A stretch of DNA of 48,003 nt, counting the filler, from Jimgerdemannia flammicorona (Eukaryota): assembly GCA_003990765.1 (NCBI GenBank). It is 2 parts of 2 records of this genome, joined end to end, with 100 filler letters (N's around TTAATTAATTAA, not from the genome) between each part and the next. Parts side by side here need not be neighbours in the genome. Positions count along the whole stretch, not along the records: positions 24,060 to 48,003 come from RBNJ01001043.1; 1 more part is not named here. One strand, written 5' to 3'. The translations under genes were made by a program, and so were the position numbers. Of this stretch, positions 7,226 through 38,816 are shown in pieces. Position 1 is the first letter of the stretch; every line of letters begins with the position of its first letter. The notes beneath the pieces are model-generated. The model ran no database searches. It saw only the letters and a list, made by a program, of their open reading frames with translations, and was not told the origin of the DNA.

Positions 7226-7284
7226 GTCCCTTGGACTCCATCTTTATTACTAGTCTATGAATAAGTATACAATATCACCACCTA

Positions 7285-10200: not shown

Positions 10201-10941
10201 GCACTAATGTCCAGGCCCATCTCTACTTCCCCCAAAACACCCCTGTCCCAAGAGGCCCCAGTGATCTGACCATGGACACCATTCTACCTCTATCACCTTC
10301 CAGACATCGTGGCCCCAACAGTTGGCCATCAGAATCCAGTCAATCCTTGTCCCCAGACCTCCAGCCCAATGTGTATAAACTCCCCTGTCCCCCCAGTGCT
10401 CTCTACCAGCATCCACCAGTGCTCCTAGCCTTTCAACCTCCTCCCACGTCACCAACCCCCCACTCCTGCTCTCCGCACCCTGTCCTCCATCAGTTCTATC
10501 CAGCCGTACATCTCGAACCATATTGAAATCTCCTCCAAGCATATCCAACCCAGCTTCAGCAAGGATCCCACTCTCCAGGAGCCCTTTCACCCAATCCACA
10601 TACTCCCCCCGCACCACAGGGCAGTAACAGGAGCCAACTGTGACTGGCTCCCAACCTGCTCGAATCTACTCACCCCAGACCAGTCTCTCCCCCCAGCTCC
10701 TCACATCCTTTATCTCCCCTCTGCCTTTCCGAACCAGGATCTCAACCTTGCTGTTCCAAATCACCATACCACCCCACTCCTTAGTCCATTCCATCCTATC
10801 AGCGTCATCCTCACACCTGATATCCTGCAAGAGGAAGAGATTGGCCTCCAATCCCTTCAACCAAAGAAAAATGTTCCTGCGTCTAACTATACCCCTTAGC
10901 CCATTCACATTCAAAGAAAAAATGTTGGTTGTACTATTCAT
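7285..10941 (-). pseudogene. LINE ORF2 (APE endonuclease - RT - C-terminal Cys/His knuckle), ~1218 codons
   Basis: SLNVNGL, GGDFN, RIDW, SDH; PGEDG, DQEKAYD, QGDPLSP, AFADD; CEEC..HWLGEC. All track fragments from 10941 to 7602 share one frame. Confidence 0.95.
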
Positions 10942-10971
10942 AATAAAATACAGTTTGTTCTCAATTAATCC

Positions 10972-13002: not shown

Positions 13003-13260
13003 GATACTAGTAGCTTTTCTCCAGAAACTGTGTCGAAAGTGTTGCCAAAGGGTTGTGTAACCTGAATGTTACTGAAGAAAGATGGGGAGACTTTGGCATT
13101 GAATACATGACCCTTTAACATGTGAATCCAATACATTAGGCAACTATACTATGAGTATGCTACTTTCTGAAAAAATGGACTTTACTGGATTTTTGACCTC
13201 CCAAATGGTATAATAACACTAGAACAAAATTAGAAGGCCCTGATGAGGACATCAAAAGCT

Positions 13261-13274
13261 AAGAAGGGGAGAGT
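13261..13274 (+). other. Polypurine tract of A1
   Basis: AAGAAGGGGAGAGT immediately before the LTR TG; the equivalent tract is at 38515-38528 and 44383-44396. Confidence 0.9.
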
Positions 13275-13380: not shown

Positions 13381-13470
13381 ACAAAGCTGAGTCAAACCGA
13401 AGTCATAGTATACAAAGCTGAGTCAAACCGAAGTCACAGTACACAAAGCTGAGTCAATATGAAGTCATGG
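13381..13470 (+). repeat. 31-bp tandem repeat x3 in LTR U3, each unit containing GCTGAGTCA
   Basis: GCTGAGTCA at 13386, 13417 and 13448. The LTRs at 24162 and 38529 have only two units. Confidence 0.9.
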
Positions 13471-13594
13471 AATACAAGATTTATACAAACGGAATCTTAC
13501 CAATCAAGACTAAACACATATATACTGAGCACCAAGATGTGTCAAACAGAGAACCAAAATAAACAACAACTACAACTTCTGAATATATATAAAT

Positions 13595-15777: not shown

Positions 15778-18700
15778 ATTTAAGAAGAAGATGAAGAACA
15801 TGAAGAGGAGTAAGTAGAAACACCTTTCTGGTCTATCTTATCTTTTATTTCTGAAATAGATAAGCAACTCTTAGAAGATAAAGAAATAGAGTAAGAAGAA
15901 CAGAAATCTGCTGCCCCAAAGCCCAAGAAGAAGTATATCCTAAAGACTATACCCAGAGATATCTACAATAAAGCCTGGCAAAAGATTTAAAAAGCCAAGA
16001 TAGAAGTTTCTCTCCTGCAGTTCTTACAACTAATACTAGCTAGAGTCTAAAACAAACTACTGAGAACTACCAGATCTAGTACTGGCTGAGTCCCAATCCC
16101 ATAGCAAGAGTCAGCTCCCACTCCTATTCAAGCTATAGAGAGACATATCAGTATCTATCTACATAGAGATATTAGAGGACAAAAGGCAAAAATTCTCATA
16201 GATATAGGAGCAGCTGTCTATATTATTACTAAATGATTTCTAGATACCCTCCAATAGCCCATTGATTGACCATCCAATCTTAGTATTATAGTAGCAGATA
16301 GAGCCCAAACTCAATCTCTTGGAGAAGTATGAAACATTACTATCTCTCTGAGATATATTTAGTTTTCTATTCCAAAGCTATTATCACTGAAGCTGTCACC
16401 TATGACATAATTCTTAACACTAACTGGATAAAGAAAATAAATACAGTGATCAATAAGTACTTAAGTTTAATTACTGAGATAAGAAGTACAGAGTCAAGGT
16501 GACCAGCTATAAACAATAAAAGAAGAAAAAGAAGGTCACCATTCAGAAGAAATATGCCAATAGTAAAGAATTTACTATAGAAGAGGAAGAAGAATCTAAA
16601 GATGGAAATAATCCCAGACTCAATACTTAAATCAATCTAGTAGATAATAGACCAGAAGATAATGTATGGACTAGAAACACTATCTCTATCACAATCAGAG
16701 CTATTGCAGAACAGATCAAAGGATATCCCACCTGCCTTAAGAGACACAAGTACTCTGAGCACTCCTCTAAGATTATTGAGACAAGGAATTTGCCTGGAAC
16801 AGCTTGCCCTGAGAGCAGAAAAAGGAAGAATAAATACAGATATATTCCAGAAACACCTGCAGCCAAAGCTACAGAAGTATAAGCAATCTGGGATCAAAAA
16901 TTATCTAAGGAAGAAGAAACCTCTAAATAGAAGATTCCTGAACAAGAAGTATCTAAAGAAGAAGAGGTTCCTGAACTTATTCCCTAAGATGACCCTTGCT
17001 GGATACCACCTGAAGATAATGATCCTTGAAATATTGAAGAAGGACTTAGTATAATCTCCATTATCCTAAAGTGAGAAATATATTAAGAAAGACAGAGACC
17101 CTAAAGGCTAGAACTCTCAACTATAATTGTATAGTCAACTACCTTTCAAAAAGTCACCACAAGATTACAAAGTTGATTTAGAGAATAAAGTCTCTTTACT
17201 CAAACAGAAGTATATCCCTTGGCTACTCTTTCTCTAACTTATGACTAAGATGGATACTGATTCCCAAGACAATAGGAGATTAATAGCCAGGAATAGTATT
17301 TTTAGGCAATGGAATATTGTAACTATAGAAGACACTCAGACTGCCAAGACTGTGGACACTAGAAGATTCACCTCAGCCAGGATGTTATAGTTTATACTCT
17401 AAAGAGAAGAAATAACAGAACCCAGATCCAAAAAAGCCAGACCAAGAAATCAGAAAGAAGGATTTTTCAAGATCTATAATTTGAGAGAAGATATCTTAGC
17501 TCTCATCAGACATACAACTTTCTGAGAATGAGTAGAAGATGCTACCAATTTTATGAAAGTTCTAGATCTTACAGGAAAAAGAGAAATCAATTATCTCCAA
17601 AATCTCTTTACTAGAGCCAGATGGGTGCATCTCAACCTCAGAGTTTAAAGACTTCCTGCCAGTAGAGCTTTAGCCCAAGGATAGTTCAAACTCAGCAAAG
17701 ATATTACCCAGTATATCCTGCTACAGCCCAAGGCTAAACCTCTAACCAAAGCTCACCAAGAAGACATAAGGTATAATCTCTTCAGTCTGGAGGATGAACT
17801 CATCAAATCTGAGAGAATATTGATGTTTAGAAATAGACTAGCCATACAGCCACCCAAAGAAACTTATATCCAACTGACCTCAAGGTCTGGACTTATCAGA
17901 TAAGGAGTAACTGTAGAAGGAGGAACTATAAATCTAGGATATATAGGTGAAATCAAGATCATTCTATATAATAGTAGTATAGAATGATATCAAATTCTTA
18001 AAGGACAGAAGATTGCTCAAGCAGTCTTCATGAAAGTCAAGACTCCCCAATTACAAGAAATCTCCAAACTGACTGAAAGAACAAGACAAGCTGAAGAATT
18101 TAGAAGCTCAGATAAGAAGAAAGTACATCTCCTTTAGGTCAACTACCTCAAGAAGAATGCCCCTCAATAAGTATATTGTCAATTAGTCAAACTGTACAAG
18201 AATCTCATCCTGGAGTCTAGAGAGCAAACCATTTTGAAATATTTATACCATCCAACCCCAGGAATCTCTTCTTCAAATCCAATAAAAATATCCTGAATCT
18301 AGATATTGAAAGACATATATTCTCTGACAAGATGAAACCAGTATACTCCTAAGCAATCAACCAGAGCTAAGAAAGCATCATCTTGTTAAAAGAAACCATT
18401 ATAGGATATCTAGTGCCTTTTTTCAACTGAACTCATAGAGAAATCTATGAGCTAAACTTATCAGGAAATGGCAAAAGATCTCAGAAGAAAGGAAAGACCC
18501 ATCTGTAACCCAGAAAACAGTAAAGCCTTCTACCAATATTAGAGAAGAATTGATATCTCAGCAATAGCAACAACTAGTAGAACTCCTTAATAAATATCAA
18601 GATATCTTCACTACTAATTATAGCAACCTACTATACAACTCATCATATCACTATAGTATAAATATAGCAAATGCAACACTTATCTGATAGAAATCTTACA

Positions 18701-19945
18701 GAATATTCCATCACCTAAAAATATTTGAAAAGGAACACATTTAAAAACTCTTGGATATTAGAGTCATCTGACCCTCTACTAGTCCCTGGGTCAGTCCTAT
18801 ATTTATTGTACCAAAGAAAAGAGGATGAAGACTCTATGTAGACTATAAGAAACTCAATTCAGTCACCAAGAAGAATATCTATCCTTTGCCCAAAATCAAT
18901 GATCTCTTGGACCAGTTATAAGATACTAGATATTTCAGCAATATAGACCTTTTTATAAGATTCTATGAAATTCTCATAGATCTCAAAGACATTCAGAAAA
19001 CAGGTTTTCTTATCTTAGAAAAACTGTTTGAATATCTCCAAATATTCTTTGGACTTTGTAATACACCTCTTATCTTTTAGAGAATGATGAACTCAGTCTA
19101 TAGCCCACTGATCTACTATTGCCTGATTATATATATAAATGATTCAAACATCTATTCAGCAAATTTCAAGGAATACCTATACTATCTAGAAGAATTCTTC
19201 AAGCTCACCTATAAGAATTACCTGAGACTCAATGTCAAGAAATGCTACTTTGGAAAACAGAAACTTGAATTTCTTAGATTTATAGTTTCAAAAGAAGGAA
19301 CTTATACAGACTTAAAGAAAACTGAGAAGATCAACAATTGACCAGTATCCAAAACTCCAAAGGAAATACTATTATTTCTGATACTAGTACCCTACTACAG
19401 AAAGTTTATCAAGGACTTTACCCAAATCACTGTCTCAATCCAAATCCTTCTCAAGAAAGAAGTATCTTATAAATAGATAGAATTACAAGAGAAAGCCTTC
19501 AAAGAACTCAGACACCACATGACCACAGTACCAATTCTTATTTGGCTCAATTTATAGAAACCATTTATCTTATATATAGATGTCTCCAAAGATGGTCTTG
19601 GAGTAGTTCTAGCCTAAGAAGGACCTGATCAATAGCATCATATAATAGCTTATATAAGCCAAGTAACTAATCAGCAGCAAATCAACCATAGTAGTACTAA
19701 ACTAGAATGTCTTGCAGTTATATGGGTGATCACTCTATTCAAGCATTATCTTATTGGAAAAAGATTCACTCTGATAACTAACTTTGTAGCCCTCAAATAA
19801 CTATTCAACTATAAGGAATCTACCAGAATCCTAGCCTAATAGATTCTTATCCTTCAGAATTACAAAATTACTATTATCTATAAAGCAGAGAAAGCTTACA
19901 ACAATGTTGATATACTTTCCCACTAATCTCAATAAATCAGAAGAA
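15778..19945 (+). mobile_element. Heavily decayed Ty3/gypsy family B fragment (PR - spacer - dUTPase - RT - RNase H; no integrase or LTR retained)
   Basis: ILIDIGAAV (DTG-derived, 16201); SRSGL..GGTINLGYIGEI..KIAQ (17880-18020); [34 protein letters not shown]. Copy A1 is inserted at its left side. Confidence 0.88.
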
Positions 19946-19949
19946 GAAT

Positions 19950-22900
19950 ATACTAAGGGGGAAAGACTTTTCTCTATACTTATTTATCAAAATAGCTATC
20001 TGACTTCCCTCTAACAGACTGATTAAAGATTGCTTAAACTCTGAGAGAACTCTCATATGCTTCAGTACTCCTTCAAGTCACACTTGCCAGACCCTATCAT
20101 AGGCCTTCTCTTGGTTCAGAAATACTAGCTGATCATTGATCCTTATAGTATAAGTATCTTCAATGACACTATGTACTCATGCTATTCTATCTCTTATCAA
20201 ATGACTCCTAATGAAACCCTTCTACTCTGTCTCTAATATCTACTAAGCTACCCTCTACAGTCTAGTTATTAATATCTTTATAACTAACTTGTGATATATA
20301 TCCAGAAGTATAATTGGTCTCTAGTTCTTCTAATTCTCCCTTCTTTTCTTATTCTTATACAACAGAACTACAAGACTCAGGTGCTGTCTCTCAATTTAAA
20401 CCCCCAAGCCAATAACTTCATTACACATTCACATCATCTCTTTCAAAGCCAATTCTATATCTGCCATCCTCTTCAGGGACTGTCCCAAGACTCATTATCA
20501 CTAATATTCCATGGATTTTCTCTCCTCAGACAGATATCCCAAGTTTACCTAAGCCCTCTACTGAGTTTGGATACTAATCCTCCAGATATTATTCAATATT
20601 CTATATATTGTCCCCACTCTCCTCCTTACTCTACAATTATCTTATCAGGAATTCAACTGGCCTAAGATCTCTAGAGTACTAACCACTAACTCTTCTGCCT
20701 CATTCAATACTCCTTCCCACTGCTGCTTCACCCTTTTTGCCCAAAGCTGCCTTAATAAGAACTTTGTAGGCCTTTTCTTCTCTTTTAAGCCCTATGATTG
20801 CAATCATACTACTATATTGTTTATTTATAGTTCTTCCTCCTACTACAGTAGCCCATTCAACTCCTCTACCTCCAGTTAGATCTGCTAAACCCTTCTCCCT
20901 TCTTTCTATTATTTAGCAGATCAGCTCACTTTACCAATAGCTTCTCTAATCTCTGAGAAGCTCACCTTAAATATCTTCTTCTCTGAGCACCTCTCTCTCT
21001 CTCTGTCTTCCCTCAGAACCATTGAGTATCCAATTTCAAATATCTCTAACAATCTCCAATTGCCAGCTTCTGTATCCTCCAGCTAATAATCCTAGAGCTA
21101 ATATCAACCACCTATGAATCTCATAAGAAGAGTTCCTCCAGTAATAAAGTATTTAGGTACTAATATCCAGACTTCTCCTCACTACCCCAAACCTTCTACA
21201 ACTCAGCAGACTCCAATGATCTGATCATGGGCACTAAATTGTCTCTAAAGAGTCTCAGATATCTGCTTCCCAGTACTCAGCAGTTAAGATCTAGTTAATT
21301 CTCAAATCCAGCCCTATCATCCAGTGAGTATAGATTTTGCAGTCTCTCTAACCAAGATGTCTGATATCTATCAGTAAGCTCAGACTTTCAACCTCCTTCC
21401 AGTCTTTCATATCTCTACTTCTATTAGCTATCTCTCTCTCTTTATTGATCCTATTCAACTATCCATTCCATATTATATTAAAGTCTCCCCCCAGATAATC
21501 AATCCTCTCTGCTACTATAGTACTAGTCTCTTAAAGTCCTCTTATCCATTTTATGTACTCTCTCCTTTCCACTGGGCAATAATAAGACCCAACTATCAGG
21601 AAGCTCTAGCCTGGCCTTCTCCATACTCTCCACACTACTCTACCCCTCTAATATTCAATATCTCCAATATCCCCTTTATCCTTCTGAACCAATATGTCCA
21701 CCCAACTCTGTCATATAGCCACACCCCCCCATTCTCTCATCTAGTCTAGTATATCTAAGTTCTCATTATATCTTAAATTCTATAGTAAGAACAGATTCAT
21801 ATCCAGTCTCTTCAATTAGCTGAAAATATTCTGATATCTCACTGTATTCCACAATCTATTAATATTCAAAGAGAAGATTCTAGTTATACTATTTATATTG
21901 AATAATGTTTTTAAGAACCAGTCACCTGCTTTATAATTCTATACTCACTATATCACTAGCAATATCCAGATTCCTCTCTGCCTCAAGCTTATCTGCCTCT
22001 CTCTGCTGTATATCCAGTACTTCTAAGATTTTCCAACAGTCTTTACTATCTATAGTCTCTATATTAGATGAGTACTCCTTGCATACTATCTGCCACTTTT
22101 CCAACCCCTTCTTAGATCCCTATAGATAAGTTACATAGTCATTTATAATTGCCAGAAGTACTGCCTCTCTGTTATCATCTATCTCATATTTCTCTACCTC
22201 TAACAAGCCTGCCAACAGCTCATTTTAAAGCTTCTGTACCATCTCTTCTCTTTGCAGGATCTCACTCAAATGTCTTTCACTAATTACCTAAAAATCTACC
22301 TCACCTAACTTATCTGCTATAATATTCATCAGTATCTTCCACAACCACCTCTCCTCTCCTATAGTCTCATTGATATCTAGGGCTATCTCCTACCCCCTAA
22401 CCCCCTGACCTCTCTTAGTATTTGTCCTTACTGACTCAACTCAATCCTCCTCCAGCATATTCTATAGCTCATCAGTTCTCCTCCCTCTTGTGGGCACTTT
22501 ATACTCTACTTGAGCCTCCTCTACCATCACCTCATCCTCTATCACTATACTCTGCCCAGAGCCTCCACCCTTCTCCAGAGTTACTATGGGAGTCCCTCCC
22601 TTCTCCCCTGCTCAAATACTTACTCTTGATTCATCTCCTTCAGCAATATTCTCTCTCTTTACTCTCTATCTCAGATTTGCCAACAAGTCTTTCTAATGCT
22701 ATCTTCCTTATACTCTCTCTCAGACAACTTGATTCAGTTGCACTCTCCTACCATTTATAATCTCTACTACTATCTTAGCTTTAAACTCCTTCTATATCAG
22801 CTATCTTTTCTCCACTACTCTAGCCAGGTCTTTCAATATCTTTAGTAAGTTCCTCTCCTCCTCAGACATCTCTATTACCCTCAAGACCTTATACTTCACT

Positions 22901-23913
22901 AGTCTCCACTTAAGCACACTGGTCAATTCTTTTCTTTCTCAGTATTCTTCTTATCTGCCAATCTTACTCTGATATCCACATCTCTAGTTCTGAACTCTAT
23001 ACCTTCTCAGACCTAGAATCTAACATCTACTACATTTCTATACTTTTTGATAATATCCACAATCAGCCACTTGGCCACCTTCTTCTTCATTATGGATACA
23101 TTTGCCACTACTAGTTATACCATCTGAGGGTCTCAGTACAGGTACTGAGCTATATAGATTGTTATTTCTTCTACTACTACTTCTTTCTCCAATACTCCCA
23201 ACATCAGATCCTCTCCCTTGAAGCTCATCTCCACTCTTTTCAGTCTCTTCAGAAACTTTACTAAAGTCACTCCTTTTACCTTCTGGGCCAGAAGCTTTAG
23301 AATTATTTTTTACTGGCTACTAAGCCTCAGAAGTATAGTATAACTATAAATTCAGATACCAATTTCTTGAGTAATAGTACTACCACCAGATCTGTTATAC
23401 CATCAGCCAGATCTCTAGGCCTTATGTCTTCCCCCTACTCAGCCCCACTATCAGCTATTATATCTGAATTTTTTTCCAAATTAATAATTTCCCCTCTACT
23501 AGTAGTTCTACTCTCTCTAGTTTCTACTCTCTTAGCTCTACTGCTATCATTACTATGGATCCCTCTACTAGGCCCTACAGTCCTCTCCTTCTTCTTACTC
23601 TTCTGCAGCCAACTCTCTAATCTAGTTGCTAAATACTCTATCTTGATCTTATTAGTGAAACTTATTCTCTCAGATCTCTGTCTACTAGTTCCATCTCTTC
23701 CACCTTCTTGTCTATCAGCAAGAGTGCTCAATAGGCTCCCCCCCAAGCCATGACTCCTCCTCACATACTGTAAGTTAGACATACTGGGGCTACTCTACTC
23801 TGTATACTCCTCAGGTTACCTATTAGTCATTATATTATTATTACCTTTTCTTTAAAAATGATGTTGAAAATATTGTCAGAAGTTTGTATAATCTAAATTA
23901 TATCAGAGAAAGG
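19950..23913 (-). mobile_element. Old, strongly mutated LINE copy L3 (5' UTR, ORF1, EN, part of RT; 3' part lost)
   Basis: Colinear with L1: 20091-20130 matches the DQEKAYD region at 9101-9140, ~21800-21900 matches the EN start, and ~23820-23913 matches the L1 5' UTR. Confidence 0.85.
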
Positions 23914-23959
23914 TCATTATCTATAGTAATAATTTTTTTTTTTTTTTTTTTTTTTTTTT

Positions 23960-24059
23960 NNNNNNNNNNNNNNNNNNNNNNNNNNNNNNNNNNNNNNNNN
24001 NNNTTAATTAATTAANNNNNNNNNNNNNNNNNNNNNNNNNNNNNNNNNNNNNNNNNNNN
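23960..24059. other. Artificial scaffold gap linker (44 N + TTAATTAATTAA + 44 N)
   Basis: Exactly 100 bp and symmetric, with a six-frame stop 12-mer at 24004-24015. Confidence 0.97.
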
Positions 24060-24161
24060 CTGATCATCTGTCTGCTCTTTACTATATCCAGTATTCAAAC
24101 CTGACCCTATATATGCCTTTTATCTCTATATTTTCTATAATTCTTCTTTCTCAAGCATCTA

Positions 24162-26223
24162 TATAAGCACACAACCTCCAAGCCACCGAAATTATACTTC
24201 ACCTTCTGAACAAGCCACTGAAATCACACATGACCTCTGAACAAATCTGGAAATCACCTGCTTGATCATGAAGCTGAGTCAAACTGAAGTCATAGCACAC
24301 AAAGCTGAGTCAATACAAAGTCACAGAATACAAGATTCACACAAACAGAATCTTACCAATCAAGACCAAATGCATATATACTGAGCACTGAGACACATCG
24401 AATCAGAGAACCAAAACAAACAATAACCACAACTTCCAAACACATAAACATGACCACCGAGATCTATACCCATATCCGTATTGACATTTGTAATGCCATT
24501 GTCAACCAAGCCACACCCTCTCTACCCCTCATGAATATCCATAGCCTAGCACCCCTTTACTTTGTGGAAACCTGATGGAATGCCCTGAACATGCTTAATA
24601 AGGCCCACCAAATCAGACAAATCTTAAGCTACTACCAGATCAGCTGCCTCCTGGAAGACATGATCAAACACAACCATGATACAGATATTACCCAGATGTC
24701 TCAACACCAGAAGCTCATCACCTGCAAACATTGAGAACTCTTCTATGAGTATAGTACCATTATTCCTTATCTCCGAGTTACCACAGCTGAAATGGTTGCT
24801 ACCCTGTCCTACAGCCAAATTGATGATATGATACAAGAACTCAACCACAAGTACCTCGAGTATGTTGAAACCACAGATAGAACCTTCCCACACCTCGATG
24901 ACCACATCCTGCAAATGCCCCAAGTCAGATATGCTATGAAGGATGTTTACAATATAATCCGGTTTGATGAAGATGAAGCAGAAGACAATGATCCCTCTGA
25001 CACCAACATGACCTCTAGCCAAGGATCTCTGCCAACCCTGATCATACCGCCAACCTTACCGATGAACTTATAACAATTCATAACAGCATATGAGACTTAT
25101 TGGGACAATGACCACTGGCATGAATACCAATTCGCATTCATCCCTAATTACTTCAACTATAATGAAGAGACTGGAGAACACAACCTATATCTCCAGACAA
25201 CCCTCGAGATCGAACCAACCACTCTACCACCTGAGTATGAGTGACATGAATCATAACTGCCAGCTTACTACAACCCTGTGACTCATAGTACTATAACCTA
25301 TAGAAGATATGCAGATAGTGAAACTGATGAAAGTGAAGATGATGTACTACTCCTTTACCCACCAATACCTTATCCAGCATATGAGACAGATGATGCCATC
25401 TTGTGGGATGGAGACAAAGTTCCAATGTATTATTACCTTAGCAAACAAGGAGAAATAATCTGTGAACCACTCTTCCTAGATGACTACTTCATCAGAGATG
25501 ATGCAATCAATAGTGATGTCATCAAAGACTACTCAGACAGTGCCTAAACCTATAAATAGCCTAGCAGTCATAGTATAGTTAGATTAGCCTTGTACGATAT
25601 GACTGTGAACTGACTCAGCAGCCAGATGATCTCTTGATATGTCAGATCACACTTGTACTATGTGACTGCATTCTGACTCAGCAAGGCACTTAGTGCTACA
25701 TCCATATTTAGCATAGTCCAGATAGCCCCTCACTAGTATAAATACTCCCTCCCCCAGACCTCAGAATCTCAGACTCGAACACACAAAAACATTCCTGAAT
25801 ACTTCTCCACAATATCCCTTCACACAACTACTCCTAGTATAGCAATATCATAAATAGTGAATAAACTCATTTAATAACCCACAAACCACTCTTAAATAAA
25901 TCCACTCCCTGTTAGGTCCCACTCCTAACCCTGTCATGAAATTTCCTAATTGGATATTGTCTGCAGCGATATGCCAATTCAACTAAGCTGGTCTTAGTTT
26001 CTTGAACTTCCTGAAATATGGAAAATCCTGAACATCCAGAACTAGTTCAAAAAAGAACTTTGGTTGAGATGTCAATCTGATCTTGAAATCAATAAGCATA
26101 GAGGATGTACTCCATATGAAATTGATCTTGACCACAAGAAAATGGTCTTCCAGAATATCCAGAACCTCTAGAAAACCCTTCCAGAACTATGTAATGGTTA
26201 CCTTAAAAAGCAACCCTCTTACA
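24162..26223 (+). repeat. Family A LTR, uninterrupted, 2062 bp
   Basis: TATAAG (from TGTAAG)...CTTACA, followed by ACT and the PBS. Confidence 0.95.
24450..25547 (+). pseudogene. LTR U3-encoded 365-aa ORF of unknown function
   Basis: One frame from ATG ACC ACC GAG to GAC AGT GCC TAA. Length is 1098 nt both here and at 38817-39914. Most internal stops are sense codons in another copy. Confidence 0.8.
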
Positions 26224-26238: not shown

Positions 26239-26538
26239 TTTACAATCCAATTCCACTTCAAGATGCTTCCTCATCCTGCTACAAACCCCTCTGTGAATTC
26301 CTACAAGTTAGTATAAAGCCCAATCTCTGAACTGGAATTTATCCTGAACCATCTAACAATCTGGAGAGAATTGAATCTGACATACAAGGACAATTTGACC
26401 TCCACATCTACAACAAGTGGGACAAACTTCATTCAAAGAAAGAAATACTCAGCATCTTTCACCAGTAACATTCGAGTGACACAGGGCTCTGACAATACTT
26501 TTCACTACGTTTTTAGTGTTTGACAACTAACAACATAG

Positions 26539-28455
26539 ATGGCAATGATCAAACTGGTGAGTGTACTGGCCAGGGGGGTGGCAGCGCCTTTGGCTGGCAG
26601 TAGGTAGAGAGGAGGGGAGATGGTTTGAGGATGCCAGGGGCCTCGATGGCCAGCCGGGGTCCTAGTGGTGGAGGGAGGGGTGGTCTGAGGCAGCGTGGAG
26701 GGGAGAGGTCAATCTTTGCTGATAAGGTCTGAATGGGAAAGATGGCTTCGGGTCTCAATGGTTGGCTGGGCCTGAGGAAGGCATCGACGGCTGCTGCTAG
26801 GGGTCAGGGAGGTGTACCCAGGGGAGTCTCAGATGGCAGGGGAGGAGCGGGAGTAGGGGCTGGAGATGTGACAGTTGATTGGGCTGTGACTGGAGATCTG
26901 GCAAAAAATCCAGATGTAATGGCAGTTGATAATTTGGGACAGGGAATGGGCATGAGGCCCAGGGACCTAGCAGATGGGGTGACAGGCATGGTGTCAGCCC
27001 CGTTACTCAAGAAGTCGAGATTGGAATTCGCAGTCACAATGTGCTTCCGGGGCTTGGCAGTGATGGCAAGGATGATCTTGGGGCTGGTGGTGCAGGAGGC
27101 TAAGGGAGCAGTGTCGGTGAAGTTTTTGAGGAGAAAGAAAGGAGTTGAGGTGGGGTTTGAGGAGGAGGATACCTTGTTAGCAGCCATAGAGAAGGGGGTG
27201 ATGGTTGGCGGGGTTGTGGTCCCTATGGCCTGGTGCATGCGCTGGGACCCCCGTATGGTGCAGTTGACAATATTGGACCTCCCTACTGTGTCTAAGGAAA
27301 GGACCAGAGAGTTGGTTGTGGAGGTGATCAAGGAGTATGGCAAGATTGTAGATGTAGGGTTCAAGGTCTGGGAGGGCACAGAGCTTCAAACTGGTGATGT
27401 TGATGTCAGGGTGAGGCTGGCTGGGAAGGAGAATATGGGGAAGTCGAGGGACTGGCTGGTAATGCTGAGGTGGGGACTGGTGGAGTGTACGGTCACAAGG
27501 GTGAAGGGGACTCAGGAGAAGGAGGAGGACCTGTTGGAGGCTCTGGAGGACCTGGAAGGGGCAGTTGCAAGGAGGAGATTGGCCTGGAAGGAGTTTGAGG
27601 CCAAGATGGTAGTGGGGGAGGTGGATGGGAAGAAGGTCTGGATGGAGAAGGGGGCCTGAGAGAAGTTGCAGGAGAGGAGGATCCAGAAGGAGCTGTTGGC
27701 GAAGCTGGGTGGGGATGGAGCTGGTGGAGGCTCAGGGGAGGGAGTTGCAGGGTTGCAGAAGAGTGCCTGGGCTGAGGGGGGAGAGATGGCCCAGGGTGGG
27801 GCTTGGATTGGAATGGGGGAGGAGAGGGAGAGCAATCTGGAGGTACATAGATGCTGAAATGGGTGAGGGTGTACGCCCTCAGTATAGTGTTCCAGATGGA
27901 GCAGAGGGGGAGGAGGAGCTGATGGATGTGTCAGATGAGGAGTGGAATGAGTCAGTGAGGAGGAGCACACTGGTGGACCCTGAGGTGGATGGGGGACATA
28001 TTGCTCAGGAGGTGGTGGAGGTAGTGGATGAGGAGAAGTAGATGTGGAAGACCCTGGAAGGGGTAGCAGCTGAAGAGTTGGGGGGTGAGGACTTCAGGGT
28101 GATGGAGGAGAGGCATTGGGAGGAGATCCTACGGGGGGAGGAGGTGCCAAGGAAGATGAGGAATGAGATCCTGACTGTCCTCCTGGAGTCAGTTGAATAT
28201 CAAGTTGATGATCAGCGAGAGGAGGAACTTAGGAGAATTGCGAGTGACAGGGCACTTTTCTTGTGGAATTCAAGAAAGGAACTGGAGAAGTGGTGCACAG
28301 TCTGCTTGGACTATCAGGCAGATATGGAGGAAGTGAATAGAGTAGAATATCAGGAAATCTTGGGGGCACTGGATGCTTGGGATATGGCAGAGGGTGAATT
28401 GGAAGCTGAACAGCACTTGGATCTGGCAAGAGATGAGATGAGCATAGAATTATAG
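26539..28455 (+). pseudogene. LINE ORF1 of L2
   Basis: Homologous to 10972-13002 (APLLKKS..FAV.MCFRGLAVMA; EYG.IVD.GF.VWEG). Confidence 0.8.
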
Positions 28456-28486
28456 GTTGAGGTCTCTATTACAACATTTCTTCAAT

Positions 28487-31400
28487 ATGAACAGTACAAC
28501 TAGGATATTCTCATTGAACGTTAATGGGTTATGGGGGGTGGCTAGGAGGAAGTATATATTTGGTTGGCTTAAGGGACTGGATGTGGATCTCTTCTTGCTG
28601 CAGGATGTTCGTTATGAGGCAGATGTGGACTTACAGGATTGGACTAAGGAATGGGGGGGCACAGCTGTTTGGAGGGGGAAAGTGTGTATTCTTGTTTGGA
28701 AGGGGATGGGGGATATTGGGGACATTGGACATTGGGGGTCTCAGGTGGTGTGGGGAGTGTGGAAGAGGCCTGGTTGGGGCTCACTGACAGTTGGGTCCTG
28801 TTACTGCCCAGCTGAGAGAGGGGAGAGGGTGGAATGGATTCGCGGATTGAAAGAAGCTGGTATATTGGGAGAAGTTGAGTTAGACTGTATGGGGGGTGAC
28901 TTCAACATGGTATGGGATAAGGAGTTGGACAGAACTGATGGAGGGAGAGGTATGTGGGGTGACAGTGGTGGGTTGGGTGACTGGTTGGAGGTGGAGAGGT
29001 TGTGTGCTCTGGTGGACTCAGGGAGACATTTTTGGGCTGATTGGCAGGTGTACACACACTGGACGGCAGGTCTGGGCTCCAGGATTGACTGGGTTCTAAT
29101 GGCAGAGTGTTGGGGAGCAGATATCTGATTGGTACTGGAAGTCATATAGTGTCCGTGGTCTGATCACTGGGGGCTGCTTGGAGGGGGGAGGTTTGGGAGA
29201 AATGGGGATGGGCCTGGACATTGGTGGCTGAATTCTTCCTTGTTGGAGGATAGGGGATTGTGGGAGGGATGGGAATCAGAGGTGGTTAGAGATATCGACA
29301 GGTGGCAGGAATAAGGCCTAGAGATAGGGGACTATAGGAGAAGGCTGAAGGTGAGGGCTCAGGAGTATTGGAGAGAAGCAGAGAAAGGAAAGTCTGCCCA
29401 ATGAAGGCGACGGGTGCTATGGGCCTCATGGCGTCTGGCAGCACTCATGGAGAGATGAGCTGGGGTGTTGGAGGATGGGGCCGTGACTGATTGGCATACT
29501 GCGAGAATCCAGCAGGAGGTGGAGGAGCTCAAAGGGGTGCTGTGAAGGGAGGAGGAGGAGCTGGTGCAGGAAATGGTGGCCTGCCTGAGGTGGCAGGGGC
29601 TTGAGGAAGGGGAGAGGCCCACAAGGTTCTTGTCATGGCTGTTACAAGCATGAAGAACGAGGCAGCAGTGGGAAGGAGTATTGGACGAGAATGGTGAGCT
29701 GGTGGTGGAGACTCCAGTGATTCTGGGCCTATTGCAAGCCTGGTGGGGGAATCTTTGGAGTGAGGAGGAAGGGGGATTGGATGCTCTGGACGTTGAAAGG
29801 CAGCTGGGGGATTGGCACCCAGACCCTGCAATGGGACTTGGAGCATTGGGGGCCTGGTGAGCGGTGAGGAAATCTGCAGGGTGGTGGCCTCAACAAGCAA
29901 GGGGACAGCCCTGGGAGAGGATGGACTCCCCTGGGATTTTTGGCAGAAGATGACTGGGGTGAGTGAGGTGCTAGAGGAAATGATTGCTATGTGTGATGAA
30001 GTTCTTCGGTCTGGTGCCTGGATTGGGGGTCAGCGCTTAGGGCTAGTCTCCTTGCTATATAAGGACAAGGGTAGGCAAGAGGATTGGAAGAACTGGTGGC
30101 CCATTATGCTTCTCGACATGGACTGCAAACTGGTGACAAAAATCTTGGTGGTGAGGTTGCAAGGAATCACTCAGCAGGTGCTTGGCTTGGAGCAATGTGG
30201 GTTTGTTGGTGGTCAGTTGATTCGAGATGGGACGGCCTGGGTTCATGGAGTAATTGAAGGTGCCCGGGCAACAGGGGTGGATGGCAGATTGGTATTTCTG
30301 GACCAAGAGAAGGCTTATGATAGAGTGTGGAGAGTATGGCTGGAGGGAGTGCTGAAGCGGATAGGTATCCCCCCGGGGTTCTGAGGTTCATTAATCAACC
30401 TCTTGGAGGACAGTCAGGTGGTATTGGTCATCAATGGCCACAGGGGGGTGACTTTTCCCCTAGGCTGTGGGGTACCGCAAGGGGACCCCTTGTCATCCAT
30501 ATTGTATGCCCTTTCCCTGGAGCCACTACTGGATAGGATTCAGCATAAGATTGGAGGATTGGACATTTTGGGGGTGAACTGGAAGGTGGGGGCCTTTGCT
30601 GATGATATGGTGGTCGGGCTGGGCTCCTTGGGGGATGTTAGAGAGTTACAGAGGACAGTGGAGTGGTATGAGCGGGGCTCTGGTGCTAAACTAAACTAGC
30701 ACAAATGCGAGATGCTAGTACTGGGTACTGGAATTGTTGGCGGCGATATTATTGAGACAGTAGTACTGGCTGGTGAACCAGTGTGCTACTTGGGGATCTA
30801 CTTCTCGGTGTTTGGGTCTCTCCTTCCCCAGGCATGGTGGGACCATAAACTTCTGGAGTAGAGTGATGTCTTGTTGCGATAGAGAGGCCAGCACATGTCC
30901 CTCGCTGGGAGGGTGATGGTTTTGAATGTGTACTGGATGCCGAAGCTGTGGTATGTTGGATATCATTTGGACTTCTCACCCTAGGTGGTCAGGAGATTGT
31001 TGAAGATGGCAAGGTCATGGATTTGGGGAGGGTGGCGAAGCCAGGTTGGTTGGGAGGTGCTCACACTGCCCTTGGAAAGAGGTGGGCTGGGCCTAGTGGA
31101 CTTTACTAAATGGCTTCTATGTCTGAGAGCCTGGTGGCTATGGAGGGCGAGTGAACTTAGGGGTCAGGAGTGGGTGCCACTCATGCAGAGGCTGTGGGAG
31201 GTTCAATACTCTCCACGTGGTGGCTCCAGTGACCTGCTGGCAATGGTGGACATGGAAGGGAGTAGGAGGATGCAGTTTATGGGCTTTGGTGGGGGGTGGT
31301 GGATGGTGCTAAGAAGATTGGACTTCGGTGGTATGGCAACAAGGCCAAGGAGGTTTGGGGACCGCAGATGTGGTGGTGGGACAGGCTTTTATTGGGTGGA

Positions 31401-32147
31401 GTTTTGGTGGAGGACTTTCAGCTTGGCGAAGGTCTAGAGTGTCTGCAAGGCCTAGGTGGAGACCTGTGGCCAGAAGCCTGGCAGAGGGTTGGAATTGGAG
31501 AGGAGTGGAACTGGAATAGACTTTGGCTTTGGAGCAAACGGGTGAGGTAGTGGCTGCCCCCCAAGTTCTGGGTAGTATGGTGGAGGATTCTACAGCAGAA
31601 TGTGATGTTGAACTATCAGTCAGGTCACTTGGTGGATGGTGGGGTATTTGAGTGTGAGAATTGTTTCAATGTTGGTCAGGAGAGAGGAGTGGTACAAATG
31701 CCTGAACATTGGCTTGGCAAATGTGAGGTTTTGGGGGAGTTCTGGAGATGTATTATGGACAGGGTAGGGCTGGGTACCATGGAGGGAGAGGGAGGGGGGA
31801 GATGGGGGGAGCTTCACTGGAAACTGGTGGGTGGGGTTGGGGATGAATGGCTGATCCTTAGCTGGGCTTTGGCTATGTGGGTTGGGATGGCTGGGCATTG
31901 GGTTCATGTATTTGAGGACAGGCGTTGGGTTGGGGTTGGTGACAAGGTGGCATGGTGGGAATGATTGTTGTTGGACATTTTAAATAGCTGGTGGCGAGGT
32001 TGGGGGATGGGTGGGGGGTACCACAGGGGTCTGGTGCAGCATATCTCCCAGAAGAGTGGTGGGAGGGTTTGGGTAGTGGGTAATTGGGTGGTGCTTGGGC
32101 AGGGGGAGGTTGAGGGGGAGGGGTTGGGCCCCTGGGGCATTGGTTGA
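28487..32147 (+). pseudogene. LINE ORF2 of L2 (EN-RT-knuckle), two frameshifts
   Basis: MNSTTRIFSLNVNGL, GGDFN, LDQEKAYDRV, QGDPL, AFADD, CENC..HWLGKC. Confidence 0.94.
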
Positions 32148-32968
32148 GGGTGGGGTGACACTGTATTGTTAACACTATAGACTTTGGTAATAAAGGGCAG
32201 TCCAAGAGACTATCTATAGCGAAAGAAATACTCCAGTTAAACTAGCAAATAGGTGAAACCCTATTCACTGAACTCCTTATACTACACCCAGCAAGTCAAG
32301 ATGAAGAAGGTCTTATTGAAGCCTTCTTTACTCTTCTCAATAAGAGTTTTGTCAGCTCCACAAATCCAAGCAACCTAGGACAACCAGCAGCAGTCTTTCT
32401 AGCCTTAGTTCCTCATGAAGCCCAAGTCTCTGTAGCCAAGTGGCTCAACTCTACCAATTTTCCCCATACCAGAACCAAGACCGCATTATACTACTGATTC
32501 CAGAACAGCAAGGCCCACTATATTCTTAAAGAAGAAGCAAGAGAAACCCTTCATCAACTACCTGACCCTGAACCTGAAGTAGGCCCTGCTACAGCCCTAC
32601 CTAAATCTGAAACCAATACTGAACCTGAACTTGACTTTGAATTAAGTCCATCTAAAATCAGATATACAACTGATTCTGTCTACTTTGATGCCAAGTAAAC
32701 CCAATTACACAAGGACCAAACCAAAGAAGAAGAGGAGTATCTTAGTGAATTCGATCTCAGATATACCACCAAAGGAGAAGTATCTCCATCAGGACAGAAT
32801 ATACCTACACAGCAACAAATAGCTATCTATCAAGCCCTCACTCCAGACCCACAACTACTACTCCAGAAACTTACACAGACCCAAAGAACCCCATCACACT
32901 CTGCACCAGTACCTCAAGTAGTACCAGTAATACCACTACCAGCAGTCCAACCACCTTCAGTAAACAAC

Positions 32969-35900
32969 ATGGCAAACCAACAGATTCTAGACCTCACAGC
33001 CCAGGTAGCCATAATGGTAGCAACCATTACTGCCTTAGCTGAACAGACCTGACCTACCAAAAATCTGAGCCTACCTACCTTCAATGGTACTATACAAGAA
33101 GTCCAAAGCTTCATTAATGTAGTTGACACTAACTTCAAAGCCAATCAATGGACCAATGAGCAAGTTGCTGACCACATTCTGACAAACAATCAAGACCACA
33201 CTCTGGAACAACTCTTTGCTCCACTACAGCCTATGTCTGCCGAGTTGTTACATTCTTCCAAGGACCTGCCGAAGAATGGTGGCAAACCCTTTCTAAAAAA
33301 CCCCTCATATGAGATACCTGACCTACAGTAGTTGCTCAGAATACAGCAAATAATGCCCAAGGATATAGAGTCCATCCTGCAGCCCCTGGACTCAAACAAC
33401 TCATGATTGCCCAATACTGCAGTGAAACCATGATTGCTGAATTCCGAATAAAACTCTGCAACCTCAAATTCGATATATATGGCAAGGAAGAATTCAAAAC
33501 CTTTTGTACAAAACTCAAGTTACTCTTGAACACTGTTGGCCTAGGATATATTGCCAATGATGAAGCACGAAATGATACAAGAGCAGACCATTTATTTGAT
33601 GCCCTGCCTGAATGGCTTACTAGAAAAATCTGAGAACAAGGCCACCCAGTTGGTTGTAATCACCAACAATGGTTCCTAGTCAGAATCAAGACTATGGTCA
33701 AGCGAATCCTAACAGCTGGACCAATTCTGCCCTGAAGGCAATTCAATAATAAGGAAAAAACTTAGACCAAGAAAGAAGAACTCAAGCATGAAGCATCCTG
33801 AGCTCCCTCTACATCCACCTCTTGGACACCCAGAAATCATGAACCCACCCAGCTGAGTACCTTCAAGAAACTCACTGAAGGTGAAAGGAATGAACTTTGA
33901 AGAAGCGGAGTATGCTTTTATTGCCAAAAGACAGGACACATAGCCAGTGTCTGCCCTAATTGAAACCCCCGAACAGCAACATGAACAACTGTTACCACTC
34001 TGCACCACCTCAACAACCTGATCACCAGAACACTGGACTTTGTCAAGTTAAGACAAACTGCTAAGGCCCCAACCAAAGGAAGTCAAAAAGCAGCAGGATA
34101 TGACCTATATACAGCTGAAGAAGCTACAGTTTCTAACTGAGAAGTCAAGCAAGTCTACACAGGAATCAGTATTCAAATCCCTGAAGGACATGTTGGAAGA
34201 ATATGCTGTTGCAGCAGCCTAGCATTGAAAGGACTCTCAGTAGAAGGAGGAGTCATTGATGAAGATTATACAGGCGAAATTATTGTCCTCATCTGAAACC
34301 ACAGTTAGACACCCTCCAAAATCCCTATAGGTTTCTGCATTGCCTAGATTTTATTCGAAAAAATCAAGTCAACCCTGACAGTCAAAGAATTCCCTGAACT
34401 ACTACCTACTATCTGAGGATCCAAAGGATTTGGCTCATTGAACAAGGCCCCAACCCAACCTACTATGAACAAAGAAGAACAATTCTATAAGAAGATTGAA
34501 GATGGATATGTACTAAGTGGCCAATACTCTCATGGCATTGAGATGTACTCATCCTGAATGATTGATGATTGCTTCTCTTGTATCAATGAACTGGCTCAAA
34601 GAAGAATCAATAGAAGGAAAGCTCCTACAACCGAAATCACCACCATTGGTTCAGACAAACTGCTTACACTCAAAGCTTTTATCAACCAAGCACCTGTCAA
34701 GATTATGATAGACAGTAGTGCCTCAGGCAACTTCATCAATGAAGAAACAGCCAATAGACTCAAGGTCTTCACCTCTCCAGTACAGCAAACTCAAGCAGTT
34801 GCCACAGCCAATAGAACCTCACATATTATTAGTAAGGAAGTCTGCAACCTACTCTTCTGAATTAACAACTACCGAGTATATATTACCCTCCAAATCGTAC
34901 CACTTCCTGACAATGAAATCATCCTTGGGACTCCATGGTTAAAACAAGAGAACCTCATGATCGATTGGGTAAACCATTCTCTGACCATCAAGAAAGAATG
35001 CTACAACTTCAAACTGCAAGGTGAAAAGGACCCACTTAATTCTAGTGACCCTGGACCAAAGATCACCCACATCAACAAGCTACAACTTAAGAAATTGGCC
35101 AAGAAATGCCCTCTCTTCACCATCTCCATCCATCTATCCAAAGGAGAACCCGAGAACTCTGAAGATGATTTTTCCAAAGTTGACAGCCATGTCAGATCAC
35201 TACTCTAGAAATTTCAAGACATATTTCCAAAAAAGCTCCCAAAAGGCCTACCTCCTAAACAAGTGGTAGACCATGCCATCAAGACTATCCCAGATGCCAA
35301 ACCAGCCTTCAAGTCAATCTACCACATGTCTCCGAGAGAAATCGATGCACTTAAGAAAGAAATTGATGAACTCCTAGAACAAGGATTTATCAGACCCAGC
35401 ATATCACCTTATGGTGTACCAGTCCTATTTGTTGTTAAGAAAGGAGGAGATCTGTGAATGTGCATTGACTACCATAATCTCAATGAACAAACCATCAAAA
35501 ACTATTGCCCACTATCAAGGATCGATGAAATATTTGATAGATTTACCAACCCACAATTCATGAGCTCTTTTGACCTGTGAAATAGTTACTGGCAAATTGC
35601 CATGAAAGAAGAAGATATCTACAAGACAGCCTTCCGAACTCGCTATAGACACTTTGAGTTCCTGGTTATGCCCTTTGGCTTAACTAATGCTCCTGCAACC
35701 TTCCAGATACTAATGAATACTATCCTGTACCCATACCTGGACAAATTCATTGTTGTCTATATTGATGACATCCTGGTCTTCAGTAAAACTCTGGAGGAAC
35801 ATCTTGAACACCTTGAACTAGTACTACTGAAACTCCGAGAAAACTGACTTTTTGCAAAACTCAGCAAGTGTAAATTTCTTCTAAAAGAAATTCAATTCCT

Positions 35901-38100
35901 TGGACACATTATCACTCCAAATGGAATCAAAGTGGACCCCAGCAAAATCTCTGCATTCAAATATTGGCCCAGACCCAAGAAGCTGAAAGACCTCCAGTCA
36001 TTCCTGGGATTAGCAAACTATTACAGGTGATTTGTTGCCAACTTTGCTAAAATTGCTACCACCCTCACCCAAATAACCAAGCACAGCAAGAAACAAGAAC
36101 AACTCTGGACCATGAAATAAGAGAAAGACTTCAACAATCTTGTGAATTGGGGATCTGAGCAAGATACCACCTTTTAAGCACTAAAAGATGCTTTGATAAC
36201 CACCCCAGTACTTTAAGCAGCAAATCCTGCCCTATCATATAAAGTTACTACTGATGCCTCTAACCTAGCCCTTGGAGCAGTACTCATACAAGAAGGACAC
36301 CCTGTGGCCTATCACTCCCACAAGTTTAATGAGGCCGAAATCAACTATACAACCCATGAAAAGGAAATGTTAGCCATCATAGACACCCTGATCAAATGGT
36401 GACCATATCTAGAAGGAGTACACTTTACTATATTGACCAACTACAAGTTATTAGTCAACATCAAGACACAGGCTACCCTTTCTTGAAAGCAAGCCAGATG
36501 GATGAAAGTTCTCACCAACTTTAACTATGAAATCCAGTATTGCCCTGGCAAGGAAAATATTATTGCTGATGTAATCTCCAGACCACCCATTGAAGAAGTT
36601 ATCCAAACTCTCACCTTGGTTACCAACACTATCATGGAGCAAATTATTGCAGCATGTGCTGATGATAAGAAAGCTCAAGCACTTTGAGAAATCCTGAACA
36701 GTGATGATACTGATAAGTATACACAGTATCACTAATACCAACTGAAGGACAATGCTATCTACTATAAGGACAGACTATATGTCCCAAACAACCAAGACCT
36801 CCGAAGGACTATCCTATTCGAATGTCATGATGTACCTACAGCTGGACATTTAGGATTCAACACATACTATGAAATTATCTCCTGAAACTTCTATTGGCCC
36901 TGCATGGCAGATTAGCTCAAAACCTACATCACTTTCTGTGATACCTACCAACGAAACAAGTCCTCAACACTAGCAAAACCCAGCTTACTTCACCCTATCC
37001 CAGTACCATCTATGAATTGTGAACAAATCTCTATAGACTTCATTGTACAACTACCCTGAACCAAGAATGGAAAAGATGCAATTGTTGTCTTTGTAGATTA
37101 CCTCAGCAAACAAGCCCACTTTGTACTTACTACCACTACTGCAATAGCACCAGACATAGCCACACTCTTATTTGACAACATCTTCCGCTATCATGGTCTT
37201 CCTAAGATCATTATTAGTGACCGAGACCTGAAATTCACCAGTCATTTTTGGAAAGCCCTTCATGCACACCTTGGAACAAAACTTACACTATCCACAACCT
37301 TTCACCCAGAAACTAATGGCCAAACCAAAAGAATGAACCAAACTCTAAAACAAATGCTAAGGAACTATGTTTCCTACAGACAAGATAACTGGTATGAACA
37401 CCTCACTGCAGTCGAGTTTGCCTATAACAATAGTAAGCAAGCCTCTCTCAGAATGACCCCATTCTTTGCCAACACTGGACAAAACCCAAACACCCCTTTG
37501 ACACTTATCCGAACTACTGAAGAACCCTCTACAGTTGAAGCTATTGAAGAATTCTTACTCCAAATGCGCAATCTAAGCCAGATTGCCATCAAGAATTTAT
37601 CACAAGCTCAAGAACAACAATTATAGTATGTTAACCAACACTGCCAAGAAGAAACCTTTGATATTGGAGAAAAAGTTCTACTAGACATCAGAGGATACTG
37701 AGTTGACAACCTCAAGCACAGACCATCTACAAAGCTGAACAGCAAGTTCATCGGACCATTTGAAGTCATTGCATAAGTCTCTCCAACCTCCTATAAATTG
37801 GTGCTACTAGATACTATTAAGATTCACCCATTCTTTAATGTCCAACATCTCAAGTGATATAATGAGAATGATAATGAACTATTCCCTAACCAAACCATGA
37901 AACCACCTGCACCTGTCATTATTAATGACCAAGAAGAGTATGAAGTTGAACAAATCCTCAACAAACATGGCCACAAGAACCACTCTGAGTACCTTGTTAA
38001 ATGGAAAGGTTATTCAATCCATGATACAACCTGGGAACCCAAGAGCAATCTCCAGAATACTACCGACCTAGTTCAAGAATATGATTCCTTAAACAACTAA
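32969..38100 (+). pseudogene. Gag-dUTPase-PR-RT-RH-IN-chromodomain polyprotein of A2 (~1710 codons; gag and pol in the same frame)
   Basis: CFYCQKTGHIASVC knuckle at 33913-33954; dUTPase ~34033-34440; [10 protein letters not shown]; integrase HHCC/DDE/GPF motifs; chromodomain EYEVEQILN..YLVKWKGY..TWEP at 37915-38100. Single frame after a 1-nt deletion near 33220. Confidence 0.95.
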
Positions 38101-38816
38101 AACCAAATACTCCACACCTATCTATACATACTATATATTACCCTCCCGAACATTATAATTATCGCAAACCAAACCAAGAACTCAGCAAAAGAAGACAAGA
38201 ATACCAACCCTCTGGAAAAAAATAGCAAAACTGAAAGCCAGCCTATTCTCTCTATACCACTGATGGGAAACAAGGCATAGACATTTAAGAAGATTCCATA
38301 AAGGAAATTCTCCAGCAGTGAATGATGTCAGAATCACTTCAGGTGCATAGCATTAAACACACAACCCTTTAACATGTGAATCCAATACATTAGGCAACTG
38401 TACTATGAGCATGCCACTTTCTGAAAAAATGGACTTTACTGGACTTTTGATCTTTCAAATGGTGTAACAACACTAAAACAAAATTAGAAGGCCCCGATGA
38501 GGACATCGAAAGCTAAGAAGGAGAGAGTTGTAAGCATACAACCTCTAAGCCACCAAAATTATATGTCACCTTCTGAACAAGCCACTGAAATCACATGCAA
38601 CCTCTGAACAAATCTGGAAATCACCTGCTTGATCATGAAGCTGAGTCAAACCGAAGTTATAGTGCACAAAGCTGAGTCAATACGAGGTCACAGAATACAA
38701 GATTCATACAAACAGAATCTTATCAATCAGGACCAAATGCATATATACCAAGCACTGAGATGCATCAAATCAGAGAACCAAAACAAACAACAACCACAAC
38801 TTCCAAATACATAAAC

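Follow-up and report, generated by a model that had tools for sequence, protein, structure and literature searches.

In a 48,003-nucleotide (nt) stretch of DNA from Jimgerdemannia flammicorona (assembly GCA_003990765.1; the whole stretch is hereafter called the window), the long terminal repeats (LTRs) of a Ty3/gypsy retrotransposon family, which we call family A, contain a sense-strand open reading frame (ORF) of 365 codons, and we conclude that this frame is probably a real, element-borne additional gene inside the LTR of a chromovirus. A preliminary description made from the sequence alone had proposed a once-open sense gene of about 365 codons in a chromovirus LTR, and the analyses reported here support that proposal. 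The gene would have been intact while the elements were active, and would later have decayed in old copies at the rate of gag-pol.

By self-comparison of the window and alignment of its repeats, we located the LTRs (named L1–L4) and the internal regions (named A1–A3), and determined that the window is made up of nested transposons, with three elements of family A, whole or partial. In both L2 (positions 24450–25547, plus strand) and L3 (38817–39914, plus strand), the frame measures 1098 nt and comprises 365 codons and a TAA stop; these two copies are colinear, with zero indels. The copy in L1 (13595–15090, plus strand) is split by a miniature inverted-repeat transposable element (MITE) of 391 base pairs (bp) and has a 1-nt deletion at codon 24. 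These coordinates, the MITE-split third copy and an LTR of 2.06 kb (L2 measures 2062 bp) all agree with the preliminary description. Hence three of the three LTRs that cover the region carry the frame, and the fragment L4 retains the end of the gene. As the ATG is located 288 nt inside the LTR, and the polypurine tract (PPT) upstream of the LTR start, the frame belongs to the repeat itself and lies outside the internal region.

Internal stops number five in L2 (codons 42, 95, 208, 265 and 269), ten in L3 and seven in L1. Compared with the five in its sense frame, the remaining five frames of L2 contain 11–45 stops, and mononucleotide shuffles of L2 (n = 2000) contain a mean of 19.6 (standard deviation 4.3), with five or fewer in just 0.05% of the shuffles; the corresponding figure for L3 is 0.8%. 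Expressed per 100 codons, the LTR frame has 1.4 (L2), 2.7 (L3) and 1.9 (L1) stops. As a yardstick, the frame that extends from the CCHC domain to the chromodomain of the same element has 2.14 stops per 100 codons, while its off-frames have 4.8 and 8.1. The decay of the LTR frame is equal in extent to that of pol.

At 14 of the 15 stop positions, another copy in the window has a sense codon (CAA, CGA or TGG), and the differences are transitions only, so that the logic of C-to-T reversion previously applied to these stops holds; the triplets that had been used to illustrate it, ACC TGA TGG / GTC CGA TGA / GCC CAA TAG, are codons 41–43 of L2, L3 and L1, respectively. The fifteenth position is a TGA at codon 265 (14386, 25242 and 39609), already recognised as common to L1, L2 and L3, at which P0001, a database relative described below, has glutamine; this TGA was either inherited within the subfamily or arose three times in parallel. 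Furthermore, five stop positions are common to L1 and L3 and absent from L2, although L2 and L3 are the closest pair, a pattern that suggests either repeated mutation of identical sites or gene conversion among the copies.

Transitions are about ten times as frequent as transversions, both among the copies in the window and in contigs from public sequencing runs, and the observed/expected ratios of the dinucleotides CpG, TpG and TpA in the window are 0.16, 1.28 and 0.83, respectively. This mutation signature is probably that of methyl-cytosine (methyl-CpG) decay. Classical repeat-induced point mutation enriches TpA and, with TpA at the value given, was rejected as the mutator.

DNA related to the window was found in eight public run entries, sharing 0.05–0.17 of words, that represent soil metagenomes and one organism. 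In four of four runs, short DNA contigs 80–99% alike covered all bins of the gene, as they did for pol. The comparison with these contigs yielded 2070 differing positions; among the 40 listed, none falls at an L3 stop codon.

A stronger argument for coding than any of the tests made within the window is provided by database relatives of the product. Searching 1.84 billion representative proteins with HMMER, we obtained three matches (P0001, P0002 and P0003). P0001, a fully open sequence of 247 amino acids, is 59% identical and 78% similar to residues 115–364 of the product and has the same C-terminal end; the alignment contains two gaps, each of two whole codons. P0002 (128 amino acids) is 79% identical, starts with MTTEIY as in the window, and has arginine at codons 20, 42, 95 and 109, each of which is a stop in at least one window copy. 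P0003, a protein of 436 amino acids with about seven 60-residue repeats, matches residues 111–148 of the ORF (38 residues, E-value 9e-6; ..LSFDKIADFIEKLN.. against ..LSYSQIDDMIQELN..), a weak match that could be due to chance or to a shared short helical motif.

Word-index searches of a 5.8-billion-protein index again returned P0001 and P0002, and no others. That the word index recovered the same two relatives implies that chance selection from many decayed fragments in that database does not account for them. Apart from the weak match to P0003, no homologue outside the LTR family was found among the 1.84 billion representative proteins or in the 5.8-billion-protein index, and an alignment-based index search confined to proteins of 30–69 residues gave no match. 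The motifs FNYNE.TGEHNLYLQTT, AYYNP, PYPAY, YYYL and EPLF.D.YFIRDD are common to the window copies and P0001. Because the frame is open across a protein divergence of 41%, with indels of whole codons only, it appears to have been kept by selection.

For tests of selection within the window, the differences between L2 and L3, which belong to one element, were taken as post-insertion decay and hence as a neutral control. Sites at which L1 differs from identical L2 and L3, a lineage class in which divergence among lineages while active is included, are distributed 33/21/57 over codon positions 1/2/3, compared with 42/27/35 for copy-private changes (chi-square p 0.03), and among codons with a single change the ratio of synonymous to non-synonymous changes is 34:25 in the lineage class and 22:36 in the private class (Fisher p 0.04). 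A similar pattern was obtained for pol of A1 versus A2 (codon positions 157/106/243; synonymous to non-synonymous 205:197).

The assignment of the carrier to the chromoviruses, also made in the preliminary description, is borne out by the Pfam domains of internal region A2 (32221–38361, plus strand). The Pfam scan covered the forward frames of the window up to 20.3 kb, from 24 to 44.2 kb and from 45.1 kb onwards. One frame of A2, with 30 stops in 1401 codons, extends from CCHC to chromodomain, and with stops read as X it matches RVP_2/gag-asp protease, RVT_1 (2.4e-29) and RT_RNaseH, as well as zf-CCHC, Integrase_H2C2, rve, SH3_Tf2-1 and Chromo (8.1e-15). CCHC is at 33910, dUTPase at 34060–34437, reverse transcriptase (RT) at 35467–35913 and the chromodomain at 37939–38085; protease, RNase H and integrase are also encoded. 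Given the order of protease, RT and RNase H, followed by integrase, with a C-terminal chromodomain, together with a dUTPase that sits between CCHC and protease, family A is a dUTPase-bearing chromovirus. Its nearest integrase clusters in the Atlas are from both Streptophyta and Basidiomycota. By eye, the translations place the N-terminal part of gag at about 32978–33400 of A2 in frame 2 (..MANQQILDLTAQV..) and the remainder in frame 1, which suggests either a 1-nt indel of that copy or a frameshift site.

The other internal regions are A1 (1176–7190) and A3 (41028–44225), the latter cut at 44225. L1 (13275–15777) is the 3′ LTR of A1, L2 (24162–26223) is the 5′ LTR of A2, and L3 (38529–41027) is the 3′ LTR of A2 and also the 5′ LTR of A3; the fragment L4 (45148–45875) contains the last 55 nt of the gene, both downstream TATA boxes and the LTR end. 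All four are on the plus strand. The succession L2-A2-L3-A3-L4 fragment forms a tandem array (24162–45875), as expected from unequal recombination between elements, in which 0.9 kb of filler (44226–45147) separates the truncated A3 from L4.

L1, L2 and L3 are mutually 84–91% identical. The homology of L2 with L1 and L3 begins with TATAAGCAC and ends with CCCTCTTACA, and the end point is common to all four copies (CCCTCTTACA in L1 and L2, with one base altered in L3 and in L4). The termini read TATAAG..CTTACA in L2 and TGTAAG..CATACA in L3. The PPT (AAGAAGGGGAGAG at 13261–13273 for L1, AAGAAGGAGAGAG at 38515–38527 for L3) lies one base ahead of TGTAAGC; L2 starts at the same point (TATAAGC), and its flank (24060–24161) is unalignable with the sequence preceding L3. 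A primer-binding site (PBS), TGGTAGCAG, is found three bases past the ends of L2 and L3, at 26227 and 41031, and presumably fits an initiator-tRNA primer of the non-plant type. Direct LTRs with TG..CA ends, a PBS and a PPT together identify the family structurally as an LTR retrotransposon; a target-site duplication was not confirmed (flanks ATCTA versus CTTTA).

Several putative signals surround the gene. The part of L2 located 5′ of it contains a direct repeat of 32 bp in 2.1 copies (24179–24244, plus strand), and L1 has an additional 31-bp repeat in 3.1 copies (13381–13477). A TATA-like box, CATATATAC, at 24373–24381 (plus strand) ends 68 nt ahead of the ATG and is present in all three copies (13517 in L1, 38740 in L3), with no ATG between this box and the start codon of L2. 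Downstream of the gene, TATAAATA boxes begin 4 nt (25551–25558, plus strand) and 190 nt (25737–25744, plus strand) past the stop codon, and an AATAAA (25860–25865, plus strand) is located 3′ of both; the two boxes and the AATAAA are kept in L1–L4. The second TATAAATA box is the likely promoter of the genomic RNA.

The MITE in the L1 gene (14525–14915) is hAT-like and has a perfect 12-nt terminal inverted repeat (TAGTGCTCCCAA / TTGGGAGCACTA) and an 8-bp duplication (TCCAGCAT). A second MITE, in L3 (40095–40518), runs in the opposite orientation and shares 91% identity with it. The two are of one family, with 8-bp target duplications and a long internal palindrome, and both reside in family A LTRs; contigs of the public runs read across the L3 site with the MITE absent (joints 40052/40053 to 40517).

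The product begins with a predicted helical, near-neutral part of about 165 residues; an acidic linker joins this to the C-terminal part, which is strongly acidic and rich in Tyr and Pro. The C-terminal 247 amino acids have an isoelectric point of 4.05, with 46 D+E versus 10 K+R, 14.6% aromatic residues, 9.7% proline and no cysteine. AlphaFold2 modelled the whole protein with a predicted local distance difference test score (pLDDT) of 31, and the first 128 residues, for which five helices are predicted, with a pLDDT of 54; no confident structure was predicted for the C-terminal part. No transmembrane segment is predicted (maximum Kyte-Doolittle 19-residue mean 0.97 for P0001 and 0.57 for P0002; grand average of hydropathy −0.81 and −0.36, respectively), and the product is therefore not env-like. 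A PPxY late domain was considered and rejected, since PPEY is found in L2 and L3, but PAEY in L1 and LSEY in P0001.

That no domain had been recognised in the preliminary description is confirmed by searches of four kinds: no Pfam family matched the product, even at E-values up to 10; no PDB sequence matched it better than E 0.39; P0001 had no Atlas neighbours by features and structure (template modelling score at most 0.30); and Foldseek against PDB, with the low-confidence N-terminal model, gave nothing better than E 2.6. By Pfam, PDB sequence or Foldseek, likewise, no retroviral accessory protein, Sag and Nef included, was recognised as a homologue.

Each LTR would hold a copy of the gene, which reverse transcription would duplicate together with the LTR, and in the full-length RNA the gene would be situated at the 3′ end, beyond pol and the PPT. 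We infer that the frame is placed in the unique 3′ (U3) region, the only basis for this being the TATAAATA boxes and the AATAAA conserved downstream. In the simplest layout, U3 would comprise repeats, gene and TATA boxes, followed by a short repeat (R) region and then by the unique 5′ (U5) region; if it were the TATA-like box at 24373 that drives the genomic RNA, the ORF would be in R and not in U3. In the simplest layout, expression of the gene would depend either on a subgenomic RNA or on a dedicated promoter. The dedicated promoter could be the TATA-like CATATATAC box, with the AATAAA of the LTR as end signal, and by this route a complete gene would be present even in a solo LTR. Alternatively, the gene could be expressed from a subgenomic RNA, as retroviral 3′ genes are. 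With a TATA-like box upstream, a promoter belonging to the gene is plausible, and this route is weakly favoured by the failure to find a canonical splice donor in the leaders.

With regard to function, our best guess, a tentative one, is that the product is an accessory protein with a regulatory role, similar to a transactivator. Acidic transcription activators combine a helical domain with a following unstructured tail that is acidic and rich in aromatic residues, and we ranked this possibility highest because the acidic-aromatic tail and helical domain of the product resemble them. Binding to element DNA, or to a factor of the host, would fall to the N-terminal domain, and the tail would bring transcription machinery to the LTR. 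The preliminary description had suggested an accessory factor such as an anti-silencing or host-interaction protein; in our ranking a silencing antagonist comes second, together with a cofactor of the particle or of integration. A more doubtful possibility is that the LTR as a whole is a complete gene, with enhancer-like repeats, a TATA-like box, the 365-codon ORF and a poly(A) signal, in a layout reminiscent of a 'complex retrovirus', so that each LTR, solo LTRs included, could supply an acidic regulator in trans that switches on or protects the family. If so, the factor would persist even after individual copies had lost gag-pol.

A number of results count against a functional LTR gene as described. 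The window contains no intact copy, and, with the codon-265 TGA present in all three, the gene may already have been truncated in this subfamily. The selection tests are marginal (p 0.03–0.04) and based on three copies, and at the nucleotide level the gene is no better conserved than its surroundings (L1 versus L2/L3: 84–85% identity in the gene, 86–89% in the remainder of the LTR). Scans of metagenome_contigs and viral_contigs revealed no loci encoding P0001 or P0002. A motif scan of the decayed copies available showed neither a canonical GTRNGT splice donor in the A1, A2 and A3 leaders nor a branch and acceptor motif just ahead of the ATG. The domain picture is soft, both models being of low confidence, and composition and position are the only basis of the transactivator idea.

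One alternative is that the LTR contains no gene at all, the frame being open by chance or base composition, or the sequence being retained for cis-regulation in U3. The strand is G-poor and A/C-rich, U3 regions hold promoter and enhancer elements, and the selection tests, as noted, are weak. We nevertheless regard this as very improbable, as so few stops are rarely reached in shuffles of L2, the stop density matches that of pol and not that of the off-frames, and the differences between copies show an excess at third positions and of synonymous changes. Moreover, start and stop codons are at the same place in three copies and are respected by the database relatives, and P0001 maintains 247 open codons at 59% identity with whole-codon gaps only. 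A gene on the opposite strand deserves hardly any credence. The codon-aligned antisense frame has only 9–11 stops, and an open stretch of 143–144 codons is found in L2 (24624–25055, minus strand) and L3 (38991–39425, minus strand); however, this stretch is interrupted three times in L1, and antisense stops at sense codons 25, 59, 207 and 343 are common to all three copies and hence old. The lineage differences, in addition, concentrate on sense position 3 (57 of 111) and not on position 1, which is the antisense wobble position, and a depletion of antisense stops is the expected by-product of a sense gene that spares TTA, CTA and TCA codons.

It is also unlikely that the frame is a captured host gene or gene fragment, carried in the LTR as a passenger without a role for the element. 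LTR retrotransposons are known to take up host sequences, and such capture is documented in the accessible part of a review (PMC7264820); the absence of a retroelement domain by Pfam would fit such an origin, as would the fact that, in nucleotides, the gene is conserved no better than the sequence on either side. However, a captured gene should have relatives elsewhere, and the protein collections searched contain no homologue outside the LTR family. Captured genes are described, in the same part of that review, in one or few copies, whereas the present frame is found in all three LTRs and in abundant contigs of four runs. Furthermore, a subfamily with only 59% identity (P0001) still holds the frame open, and P0001 and P0002 respect the ORF's own end and start, respectively.

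We therefore return to an element-borne LTR gene as the preferred reading and compare it with known systems. Retroviral genes located in, or overlapping, the 3′ LTR include sag of mouse mammary tumour virus in U3, lentiviral nef, which overlaps U3, and the bel/bet region of foamy viruses. Like sag, nef and bel, the family A frame is a sense ORF beyond pol and the PPT that is duplicated with the LTR and situated at the 3′ end of the genomic RNA, and its product would be an accessory protein and not a replication enzyme. Unlike the retroviral U3 genes, it is carried by an env-less Ty3/gypsy chromovirus and has no sequence or fold similarity to them; unlike retroviral 3′ genes, it is wholly inside the LTR, with no splice signals found in the leaders or before the ATG.

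Additional ORFs (aORFs) of LTR retrotransposons, as far as the accessible sections of PMC7264820 describe them, are sense env-like or antisense ORFs between pol and the 3′ LTR, in elements such as Athila, Bagy2, Grande, RIRE2, Retand and Boty. Given three of three LTRs, contigs of four of four runs and the diverged relative P0001, the family A frame is family-wide, as these aORFs are; it also resembles them, on the same portion of that source, in having no outside relatives and a conservation comparable to that of the element's own proteins. It differs from the aORFs described there in being inside the LTR instead of the internal region, and in not being env-like. Chromoviruses with a dUTPase have been reported from fungi, namely from Postia placenta (PosPlaTy3), Phanerochaete chrysosporium and Tuber melanosporum (PMC2864245, available text), and family A is like these, to the extent that this text shows them, in having a gag-pol with CCHC, protease, RT, RNase H, integrase, chromodomain and dUTPase. 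For some fungal elements, a figure legend in the same text mentions an 'additional ORF with unknown function', with no LTR position stated. In the literature searched, the accessible portions of which place the additional ORFs of LTR retrotransposons in internal regions only, and which leaves most subscription journals outside, we found no description of a non-retroviral LTR retrotransposon whose LTR contains a protein gene. What would be new is an aORF embedded in the LTR, in the place that U3 genes have in retroviruses and homologous to none of these.

The remainder of the window contains other transposons. At 15.8–20.3 kb (15780–20300) there is a second, unrelated gypsy element, AT-rich and heavily decayed, with dUTPase (E 3.7e-17), RT and RNase H, so that two dUTPase-bearing gypsy families occur within one window. 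Non-LTR elements resembling long interspersed nuclear elements (LINEs), with RVT_1, are nested in the A2 leader (26455–32220, plus strand) and near the end of A1 (about 7191–13095, minus strand); they have a GC content of 50–58% and a strong strand skew, the reverse piece is 71–76% alike, and a third piece occupies 46749–48003. The region 20300–23959 is pyrimidine-rich, with a GC skew of −0.4 to −0.57 and a negative AT skew, and has no repeat partner in the window. Positions 23960–24059 consist of 44 N, TTAATTAATTAA and 44 N; this resembles a contig spacer with stops in all frames, or a masked stretch, and the two halves of the window may not be neighbours.

LTRs are usually treated as non-coding promoter and terminator modules, and are masked by annotation pipelines. 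If the reading favoured here is correct, a selected LTR gene would extend a feature of complex retroviruses, exemplified by sag and nef, to an env-less Ty3/gypsy element, and solo LTRs could be coding units. It would also add an orphan protein to the repertoire of this chromovirus family, a possible regulator of transposon activity or of host silencing.

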